From Tubiluchus corallicola (taxonomy: Eukaryota > Animalia > Priapulida), in NCBI GenBank assembly GCA_030141605.1, contig JAQGDQ010000315.1, positions 62,001-126,000 on the forward strand: 64,000 nucleotides of DNA, given 5' to 3'. Shown in pieces: positions 47,001-50,000 of the stretch. Position 1 is the first letter of the stretch; every line of letters begins with the position of its first letter. Position numbers and translations under genes: made by a program. A model generated the notes under the pieces. It was not told where the DNA came from and made no database searches. It worked only from the letters and a program-made list of their open reading frames with translations.

Positions 47001-50000
47001 ATGTCTGCTTGAACTGTCTGCGTGAACTGTTGATAGACTAAATACTTGGAGATGATTAAAGTCACCAGTTGCTATGACTGTTACTCCTGTATGTGTAGCT
47101 ATTACAGTAATTCGTTCCGGAGGGGCTTTCGTATCTTAGAATTTTCATATTATGAGACAAGATTACCCTATAAATGGCGTAATTTGTTCCAGCCCCCCTC
47201 CCCGAAAACAGTCGTATAAAGTGTAAATATTGTACCCACCATATTAATGACAACATAATCATTTACATTAATGTTGAAAAACAATGAGAAAAGATAAGAG
47301 TACGACAAAGCATTCACGTGATGCTACGTAATGCATTCTGGGAGGACCACTGTCGGGCTGCACTTTCGATTTTCGTTTTCATATCTTGAATATTTTTCGT
47401 TAAATAGGACGGAAATTTCTTCTAAGCCCGATTCGTATTCTGAATATTTCGTATAATAGGGTTTTCGTAAGTCAAGGTTCCACTGTATAATGACAACGTA
47501 TGTCATGTAGGAAGATGTTGCCTCCTTATGGTCGTGCAAAAATTTTCATTGTAGATTTTAAACATTAGAAACAAAAAAGAGTGTGTCCAATTTACTTGTA
47601 CATTTTTGTCCAAAAGAGTGGTAAAAATTAGGTTGAAATGGTGCCTGATTGTACTCCTAAACTAGAGTATTACCGCTCAGTTGAGAAATTCCTGTTTTGC
47701 ATGCTGCACTGATAATTAATTTGGTTTTACAGTTATAGGTAGGTGCAGGTGGGACGGCTTCTAAAAAGATATATCAGATACCCGCTGACGACACATGAGT
47801 TGTGTGTCCATTTTCTCTTTCAGATCACTTTATCGAGGATTTGAATGTCTGTGTTTGTATTTGTGTCTGTTTTTTTAAGTGTGTGGTCATTGTTGAAGGC
47901 ACGATCTATGTTGGAAAGGCTTATTCTTTTCTCTCTCCAGGTCTGCAACTGGTTCGGCAACAAGCGGATCCGCCACAAGAAGAACATGCGAAACATAGGT
48001 AAGAAATGGGGTGTGGTTGGGGAAGCAGTGAATTCTGATGAAGGATTTTCTCTCCGCAGGTGTCTAACTGGTTCGGCAACAAGCGTATAAGGTACAAGAA
48101 GAACATAGGTAAGGCACAGGAGGAGGCTAATCTGTATGCAGCAAAGGCTGCGGCAGCTACAGCAGCGGCATCGGTCAGCGGTCAGACTGCCGGACAGCCG
48201 GGTAAAGTAGTCAAATTGCAGGCCATCCATGGCCGTCCACTTATTGACCTGCCTGGCTAACTCGACTCAGAACATAAGCCTTCAGTGCCTGTCTTATTGA
48301 AGGAGATACTGAAAATTCTGTGTATTGAAAAACATTGTTCTAAAGTAGAACTGTTCATTTTCCCTGGTGGTCTTCTCTGAACTGATATATAATAATGTGT
48401 CTGCATTTTGCAGTTTATTTCTCAAATTTTCAGTAATCTCTTTTGATAAGAAAATTACCTGTTTCTGTGAGAACAATTCCTAAGTTGTTAACTTAGCTTC
48501 TGACAACCTTCCGTTAATGTAGTTCTAACTTTCCAACAACATTGTCTTGCTTTACACCTCTTTTCCATCCTTTACAAGCATTGCTGAAACAACCAAATGA
48601 CTAACTCGCAAGTGTGTGCTTGTGCATGTGTTAATCCTTCACACCCATAAAAGTTGCCTCGTTCTTTCACCATTTTTTCAGGTTTTTGTTGATGTCCAGT
48701 GCCAGTGTATCTTTTACTAAAACTGCGCTTACATTTGCTGCATTTATCAAAGCCTCAAGCTTTTAACTAATGTGTTTTGATTGCTTTTTTTACTTTATGC
48801 GCCAGTTTATTTGCTTCCCAGTTTAATTTTTCTGTGCGATTTTGCCTCAAGTGCTTGCATGGATTTTCGTATTTGCTTTATCGCCCGTTCCTATGAAATT
48901 CAGGAACCTTCTTGTGCTGTTGAGCTTTGTTTTAAGTTGGTGTTTTCAGTTTTCAGTTTTCAGTTTTACTAAAGGCACAGATGAATGATTATTCGTGTCT
49001 ACAGACATTGTGCATTATTGTGCTTATTTTCTGGCATGTGATAAGTGACAAATACTCTATGATATTATTCCCATTTGAAACTAATTTGGTCAAACTGATT
49101 GGCTAATGTATGTAACTGTTTCAAGTTGTGTGTCCACTGTCCAGTGTCATGCCTGATAGTGGGCAAGTGTGCCCATGGCTCAGTTTAAATTTTGCTTTAT
49201 CCTGTTTGAATAATAATGCAAGATAGCTATAAAAATATTTGTAAGTTTCTGTAAATTAAGAGAAAAGTTTTAATTCTACTTGCTTAATTTTACGTAGTTT
49301 AATCCTGGTAATATTTTTCATTTCATGTAGCTGATTAAAAACAGTTATATAAATTTAACATTGAATAAACCTGCTTTTGTAAATTTTAGCAAGTGCATTT
49401 TGTATTGAACCATCTTGTGGTATCAGTTCATTCTCTATTCATAGCTAATATATTGGTTTTTTTTGTAGGTTATAATTTGGTGCCTAATTCTCAAGGCCAA
49501 ATGATGGGAGGTCAGCAGGAGATGTACAACATGAACGGCGACGGCTACCACAGTGGAGCATCAGTTGGTGCTAACGTGCAATCACAGGTGGGTAAAAAGC
49601 TTTAGTGATTTTTTCATTCTGAAAAGTCGATCACGTTTAGCAAATCCTGAATCATGACCTTGACAATTGCCTTTATTGGTTGTGAAAGTAAATAATGTAT
49701 TACTATTATGATTTATAATTACGATCAACCTCAGATATATGGGACACCTCCGGACCGGGAAAAACCGTCCTTTATATCTCAAGTTGAGTCAAACCGAGGG
49801 TGTATATAGACCTCTACTTTTTTGTACTTTTACCCATATTTTGATGGATTATTGCTGCACTGAATCTCCTTCAGTGATTAAGGGGGGGGGGGGATGTGAC
49901 CGCGGAAACCGAGCTGTTCAAAGCCCGAGTTTGCGAAAAATCGAGGTTAAAAATCGATTAATTTTGCTTTGATCATAGGGTCCCTTATATGCGAGGTAAT

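Follow-up and report, generated by a model that had tools for sequence, protein, structure and literature searches.

Competing RNA pairings govern mutually exclusive exons in Dscam and 14-3-3zeta, and long-range pairing at such exons is an already known kind of control. At Dscam exon 17, exclusivity is reportedly achieved by steric hindrance plus RNA structure. In human ATE1, exons 7a and 7b form a two-exon exclusive cluster in which the long-range pair R2R5, spanning 30 kb, sets the exon ratio and not the exclusivity; the latter comes from competition between R1R3 and R3R4, which the available part of that report demonstrates by mutation (PMC7797038). Dscam exon 6 and 14-3-3zeta contain tandem copies and one downstream element with two competing partners, according to the available text of a further source (PMC6071210). 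Exons 4a and 4b of OGDH are described as sterically exclusive, the branch point lying less than ~50 nt from the upstream donor (PMC7969005, available part). Exclusive exon pairs are also described in TALE homeobox genes, namely the tandem duplication of exon 9 in Capitella Meis (PMC3140891) and exons 7a and 7b of C. elegans unc-62 (PMC4165533); the available portions of these two reports do not describe RNA structure.

Here we describe an exd/Pbx gene, of the PBC class in contrast to the Meis class of the two genes just named, in which the exon for homeodomain helix 3 is duplicated in tandem as exons 6a and 6b. No duplicated helix-3 exon in exd/Pbx was reported in the literature searched, which takes in few subscription journals. 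The locus resembles ATE1 in being a two-exon cluster where a long-range duplex would act on the ratio and exclusivity would come from elsewhere. Unlike R2R5, however, this duplex is predicted only, spans ~470 nt, encloses both exons and competes with a donor hairpin. With Dscam exon 6 and 14-3-3zeta it shares the tandem copies and a single downstream element with two competing partners, but there is no selector for each exon, and the competition is between an upstream intron arm and the 6b donor itself. As in OGDH, branch adenines, here only candidates, lie close to the upstream donor, but they do so here because the intron is only 61 nt long, and distant branch points play no part. All of the control region is contained in 600 nt.

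A tandem copy of the helix-3 exon

The gene lies on the + strand, with coding exons from ~19.9 to 53.8 kb of the window, by which we mean the whole 64-kb stretch of DNA analysed. Its assignment to the PBC class of TALE homeobox genes follows from the match of exon 6b to PBX1 (E 2e-14) and from the presence of a PBC domain together with a TALE homeodomain carrying WFGN in helix 3. A protein search with exon 3 matched 2207 of 2624 candidates, and PF03792 was present in all 120 of the exon 3 matches listed; exon 9, searched against 50% representatives, gave 4 matches of low-complexity appearance. Per-exon similarity scores were divided among arthropods, molluscs and hemichordates. The exons that concern us are:

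44788..44923, + strand: exon 5 of exd/Pbx, homeodomain helices 1-2, ending ITVSQ in phase 0; joined to exon 4 in X6 record 25
47941..47998, + strand: exon 6a (58 nt), which duplicates exon 6 in its short form, differs by Ser>Cys, Tyr>His and 3 additional residues, and has no fourth helix
47999..48059, + strand: spacer intron, 61 nt, G-rich
48060..48201, + strand: exon 6b, 142 nt, canonical helix 3 plus fourth helix, with internal in-frame donors after 48108 and 48180
49469..49587, + strand: exon 7, phase 1 start, the common downstream exon

Exons 6a and 6b are 84% identical over 61 nt, a score reached by none of 2000 shuffles. Exon 6a ends at AG|GTAAG, which is identical to the site inside 6b at 48108, and it is therefore a copy of the short exon form. 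Both lengths are 1 mod 3 and thus compatible in phase. The reading frame into exon 7 is kept by 6a alone, by short 6b and by long 6b, the donors at 48108 and 48180 being in frame like the long donor at 48201|48202. Inclusion of both exons, or skipping of both, leads to early stops, in the case of double skipping after 11 residues. Beyond the long donor the 6b frame stays open until the stop codon 48258-48260, which follows the start of the exon by 66 residues and falls within the sequence described below as the 3' arm.

Within the spacer, no candidate branch adenine is more than 47 nt away from the 6a donor. The steric limit between donor and branch point is given as ~50 nt in vertebrates (PMC7969005, available part), and in C. 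elegans double-inclusion products were decayed in 14 of 19 clusters of non-3n exons (PMC4165533, likewise). Because the branch adenines are so close and double inclusion gives an early stop, the exclusivity of 6a and 6b is explained more simply by spacer length and frameshift, with no need for RNA structure; it is likely that these two features stop the joining of 6a to 6b. The steric component is uncertain, as the 50-nt limit is a vertebrate one and, by analogy with C. elegans, whose minimum intron is ~40 nt (PMC4165533, available part), a 61-nt intron could be excised in short-intron animals.

A third, decayed exon copy at 47824 was considered and rejected: 1909 of 2000 and 1485 of 2000 shuffles scored as high, spacings of 117 and 119 nt notwithstanding, and the sequence after the candidate third acceptor has no homology to 6a or 6b. 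Homology of the intron flanks was likewise discarded, with 672 of 2000 shuffles scoring as high once the pyrimidine tract was left out and 7 of 2000 with the tract, which confounds the comparison. A protein search with 6a plus the spacer yielded 1 candidate and no match.

A search for sequencing runs that match the locus listed six, none of them recorded as RNA. Evidence on splicing comes from X6, a run guessed to be RNA and 4-10% diverged from the window in the listed exon pieces. A 1198-nt contig of X6 lies on exons 4, 5, 7 and 9 with the introns absent, and by its coordinates the stretch separating exon 5 from exon 7 is exactly 58 letters long. X6 depth in the bin holding 6a and 6b is 45.2, equal to 286.3 x 58/367, compared with an expected 38.2 for short 6b and 110.8 for long 6b. 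By the same arithmetic, 54 letters separate exons 7 and 9. The 58-nt piece itself is absent from the listed X6 matches; the gap and the bin depth of this one contig from a diverged relative make it likely that 6a is spliced without 6b. Exon 6b is the conserved form; neither it nor use of its long donor was seen in RNA. X5 and X6 carry the species label of X1, yet the difference amounts to ~4% for coding exons and 10% for introns, and the two have at least two substitutions in common; this points to a species that is cryptic or was mislabelled.

A predicted long-range duplex and its local competitor

The first-pass annotation had described nested RNA duplexes bracketing the exon pair, together with a hairpin and a UG-rich docking site, and had proposed that they regulate the choice between 6a and 6b. 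All the strings it quoted were found where it had placed them, and the outer duplex, 47731-47758/48232-48262, is predicted much as it had been drawn, with ~25 bp and -32.2 kcal/mol. Its parts and their rivals are:

47731..47758, + strand: 5' arm of the long-range duplex, covering an acceptor-like AG (47731-32) and donor-like GTs at 47739 and 47749
48232..48262, + strand: 3' arm of the long-range duplex, common to both folds described below
47733..47738, + strand: candidate 6-nt micro-exon, Leu-stop in frame, passing only the loosest of three acceptor thresholds
47692..47721, + strand: local partner of the 5' arm, rival to the long-range duplex
48196..48258, + strand: competing local hairpin in which 48196-48204, spanning the long 6b donor, pairs with 48250-48258 (-25.6 kcal/mol, z -2.09, 6/200 shuffles)

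The two arms are reciprocal best partners within 44924-49468, which takes in both introns. They are indeed GC islands, at 57% and 55% GC against 34% for the introns, and 55% is reached by 2.7% of 4228 intronic 28-nt windows. When duplexes were scored by the strongest pairing between two 32-nt segments with 100 nt or more between them, the duplex window (-33.2 kcal/mol) ranked first among the 106 non-overlapping 600-nt windows of the 64 kb, the next reaching -28.9; it was also the strongest of the 11 windows with GC above 0.42 and lay ~2.7 SD beyond the GC trend. Block (local) shuffles averaged -26.4 and global shuffles -26.9, with 1/114 and 3/114, respectively, as strong as the duplex. These tests are post hoc, the site having been picked by the first-pass annotation, and p is about 0.01-0.03; one grid window coincided with that of the annotation, and with shifts of 3 and 6 nt the score became -30.8 and -32.4, respectively. 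A chance event at 1-3% is expected about once per 64 kb, and the argument against chance is that the top-scoring window of the 64 kb is the one holding the exon pair. The outer duplex is thus stronger than most chance matches and pairs intronic sequence near splice sites. The fold test that had been proposed for it, 47700-48300 against shuffles, failed: the region folds no better than usual, with z -0.54 and 5/20 shuffles as good. Rfam covariance models produced 0 matches at E 0.5 or better in 46500-49500.

The 5' arm begins at the acceptor-like AG and pairs through the donor-like GTAGGT. The candidate micro-exon between them has a pyrimidine fraction of 0.62 and fails the two stricter acceptor thresholds; at the loosest one, 33.5 kb of intron contain only 12 such acceptor/donor-like loci. 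The duplicated unit includes neither arm, and the idea that the 5' arm duplicates the donor region was dropped, 1388/2000 shuffles scoring as high.

The diverged DNA run X5 gives no coverage of this region, and X3 and X4 have no substitutions relative to the window in it. X4, which covers the 5' arm and not the 3' arm, shows 0 differences in ~520 nt where 3.4-5.7 were expected from 8 other listed pieces; this identity around the 5' arm, at low depth and not specific to the arms, is a weak hint. A metagenome scan gave 2 loci from 595 pattern matches, both very distant and with one helix-3 segment each.

The predicted outer duplex varies with the folding window, from p about 0.9 in 47700-48300 to 0 in 47600-48400, because the 3' arm has a competing local partner. 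In fold L the 3' arm pairs with the upstream 5' arm. In fold H the 3' arm turns back on 48196-48225, forming 9 bp that span the long 6b donor, while the 5' arm pairs with its own upstream flank, 47692-47721; the corresponding hairpin, 47688-47762, reaches -18.8 kcal/mol (z -1.23, 20/200 shuffles as good). This competing fold, as predicted by the model, was overlooked in the first-pass reading. Sharing the 3' arm, L and H are mutually incompatible in the model and so constitute competing pairings. Across 24 folding windows L was dominant in 15 and H in 7, L and H together averaging 0.95. Their balance swings from 0.00 to 1.00 depending on the window ends; in one context L is the more stable by 3 kcal/mol, in a second H by 8. 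Just 3' of the 3' arm there is a 16-bp helix, 48292-48307/48436-48451 (p 0.96 in the 47400-48600 fold), and window ends that cut or include the 48292-48451 region move the L/H balance.

Of the 9 donors scored as real, the long 6b donor fits the consensus least well (4/7 positions; the internal 6b donor scores 5 of 7). With the 5' arm in the folding window, opening positions +1..+6 of the long donor costs 0.5-0.6 kcal/mol instead of 1.9-3.0, a saving of ~1.3-2.5 kcal/mol on its intron side; for positions -3..+6 the gain is only 0.6-2.5 kcal/mol. Closure of the long donor is 6.6 kcal/mol against 6.0 +/- 1.8 with shuffled downstream intron (70/200). It is no more closed than with shuffled intron because exon 6b offers another hairpin over the donor, which is present even in fold L.

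Several smaller elements lie within or beside the duplex:

47782..47789, + strand: 5' strand of the inner 8-bp helix
48174..48181, + strand: 3' strand of the inner helix, inside 6b coding sequence
47790..47808, + strand: local GACACAT/GTGTGTC hairpin, upstream of the third acceptor
47811..47823, + strand: candidate third acceptor-like site, AG 47822-23, whose use would add 6 residues and a stop
47847..47886, + strand: UG-rich tract, predicted partner of the 6a 3' end, in the top 0.07% of the gene's 40-nt windows

The 8-bp pairing of the inner helix exists, but the claim that it is nested in the outer duplex is weak. Its probability is 0.23-0.44 in the 15/24 folding windows where the outer duplex is dominant and rises up to 0.99 where the outer duplex is absent; the two helices are anticorrelated, the inner one accompanying the local fold. 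The long 6b donor, 48201|48202, does sit between the two helices, and the GACACAT hairpin is predicted as described (p 0.67-0.98), its 66-nt region having z -1.71 with 7/200 shuffles as good. As for the UG tract, said to pair with either exon, pairing with 6a appeared in 24/24 folding windows, covering the three extra codons and the donor of 6a, whereas pairing with 6b had p <=0.01 in 8/8 folds. In 40-nt windows its pairings with 6a and 6b (-13) are weaker than those with five other intron partners (-17 to -19). Pairing of the tract, as modelled, could silence 6a, and the tract may also serve as a protein-binding site. The inner helix, the hairpin and the UG pairing are present but individually weak. 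UG-rich and TGCATG motifs are bound by CELF/TDP-43-type and RBFOX proteins; TGCATG occurs at 47698, 48623 and 48856, and with a total of 28 in 64 kb the three near the exon pair are a modest number.

Proposed competing folds and rival explanations

Our preferred reading, held tentatively, is that the duplex is one of two competing folds that would bias the 6a/6b ratio, the spacer and the reading frame probably preventing the joining of 6a to 6b. With fold L, engagement of the 3' arm upstream would make the weak long 6b donor more accessible on its intron side, and would bury the acceptor-like and donor-like sites that could otherwise make a stop exon. With fold H, the 3' arm would cover the long 6b donor and the 5' arm would rest on its own upstream flank, favouring 6a or the short 6b donor, both without the fourth helix. 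Such a bias on the ratio is plausible. The sequences, the reading frames, the strength of the duplex relative to controls and the 58-nt exon in the relative's spliced contig are shown here, whereas formation of the folds in cells, their influence on splicing and its direction are inferred. Long-range pairs in human genes are enriched over cryptic splice sites, and exons inside long-range loops tend toward lower inclusion, according to the available text of one report (PMC8052449); by analogy, the lower inclusion of looped exons would count against fold L promoting long 6b. As a comparison for the ratio, ATE1 R2R5 acts in this way and not on exclusivity (PMC7797038, available part).

The duplex might instead be incidental, with the choice made by RNA-binding proteins at the UG tract, the TGCATG sites and the G-runs of the spacer, and exclusivity arising from spacer length and decay. 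We regard this as somewhat unlikely. It would fit the whole-fold z of -0.54, the 1-3% of shuffles that match the duplex when about 100 such windows had been scanned by the first-pass annotation, the rank of the UG tract (top 0.07% of the gene's 40-nt windows) and the three nearby TGCATG sites; yet the best duplex of the 64 kb falls exactly around the duplicated exons, both of its arms are GC islands, and three copies of a motif found 28 times in 64 kb are modest. A second possibility, which we consider unlikely, is that the duplex forms without choosing between 6a and 6b, and either only masks the micro-exon or cryptic sites in the 5' arm, or excludes both exons by looping, the product then being decayed or, like mouse Pbx1-d, devoid of helix 3. 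That the 5' arm spans an acceptor-like AG plus GTAGGT speaks for masking, as do the cryptic sites enriched under such pairs (PMC8052449, available text), although there are 12 such loci in the 33.5 kb of intron, the micro-exon fails the two stricter thresholds (pyrimidine fraction 0.62), and G-rich AGGT runs both resemble splice sites and pair strongly, so that the overlap may be circular. Looping out is consistent with the lower inclusion of looped exons in the same source and with the stop 11 residues after the skipping of both exons; mouse Pbx1-d, without exons 6 and 7, is described as dominant negative in the available part of its report (PMC5968462). Against it, the sole spliced contig includes an exon between 5 and 7.

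The model of the first-pass annotation, nested duplexes plus a UG docking site enforcing the choice as in Dscam and 14-3-3zeta, is in our view very unlikely. A competing pair of folds does exist in the folding model, the UG tract pairs with 6a in 24/24 windows, and a common element lies downstream of the cluster, as do the docking sites of 14-3-3zeta and Mhc in the available text (PMC6071210). However, both exons lie inside a single duplex, and selectors next to each of them were not found: the second selector is absent, the UG tract pairing with 6b at p <=0.01, and neither arm is among the five best partners of the spacer. Moreover, the inner and outer helices are anticorrelated, and both arms lie outside the duplicated unit, the 5' arm being no copy of the donor region (1388/2000).

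Consequences for the Exd/Pbx protein

Hox proteins have Exd/Pbx as their main cofactor, and helix 3 of this cofactor hardly varies; the interest of the locus lies in the altered Exd isoform as much as in the duplex. The fourth helix reportedly aids complex formation. The WFGNKRIR core is retained in exon 6a, which has Cys in place of Ser, His in place of Tyr and three residues added, and is without a 12-residue segment of the canonical form. By count from Arg288, the replaced pocket Tyr corresponds to PBX1 Tyr291. In a simulation study, PBX1 Tyr291 stacks on the Hox hexapeptide Trp, in a pocket to which the end of helix 3 and the linker between helices 3 and 4 contribute (PMC8198631). Among 266 motif matches, the pocket position was Tyr in 263, Phe in 2 and His in 1 (P0117). 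If 6a is spliced as an alternative, one gene would yield a Hox-cooperating form and a likely Hox-poor one.

The short form of the exon, with its KNIG end, was found in 7 hemichordate and limpet proteins among 291 examined. Oysters have two variants of the helix-3 segment between matching flanks (24 and 15 proteins), and the Ridgeia gene model P0208 carries two copies of the segment in tandem. The oyster and Ridgeia copies keep the fourth helix, whereas 6a copies the short form only. Judged from these proteins, the helix-3 exon seems to have been duplicated repeatedly. A bolder extension, distinctly unlikely in our judgement, would make the locus a two-state RNA switch between a long 6b Exd acting as Hox cofactor and a 6a form in which the DNA-reading core of helix 3 is retained, the Hox-hexapeptide pocket altered and the fourth helix missing, the 3' arm alternately hiding the 6b donor and the stop micro-exon, and would have several phyla independently duplicating or shortening the exon to retune Hox partnering.

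Other parts of the gene and family showed further variation. Four Pbx proteins (P0002, P0016, P0053 and P0001; oyster, bivalve-like and centipede) contain a second copy of a 15-residue segment that ends exon 3, likely a further exon duplication in the Pbx family as read from these proteins. Exon 1 ends ..QAR| near the donor at 20072, and in-frame codons continue beyond it; several homologues have extra residues at this junction (RC, RY, RWVSG, RQIR), a pattern that suggests alternative donors or a micro-exon. Exon 8 (51892-51975) has an in-frame alternative acceptor at 51922 that would give 54 nt instead of 84, fits the 54-letter gap in the X6 contig and would remove a 10-residue motif. Intron 7 contains a CA/CAC-rich low-complexity tract at 50510-50760, and contig depth marks high-copy repeats at ~43.9-44.6, 45.3-46.0, 49.7-50.1 and 52.3-52.7 kb. 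Intron 2 holds a GC-richer insertion at 24000-30600, with a stretch repeated at ~24160 and ~30570; near 27250 its minus strand gives an integrase-like reading, and the insertion is probably a retrotransposon.
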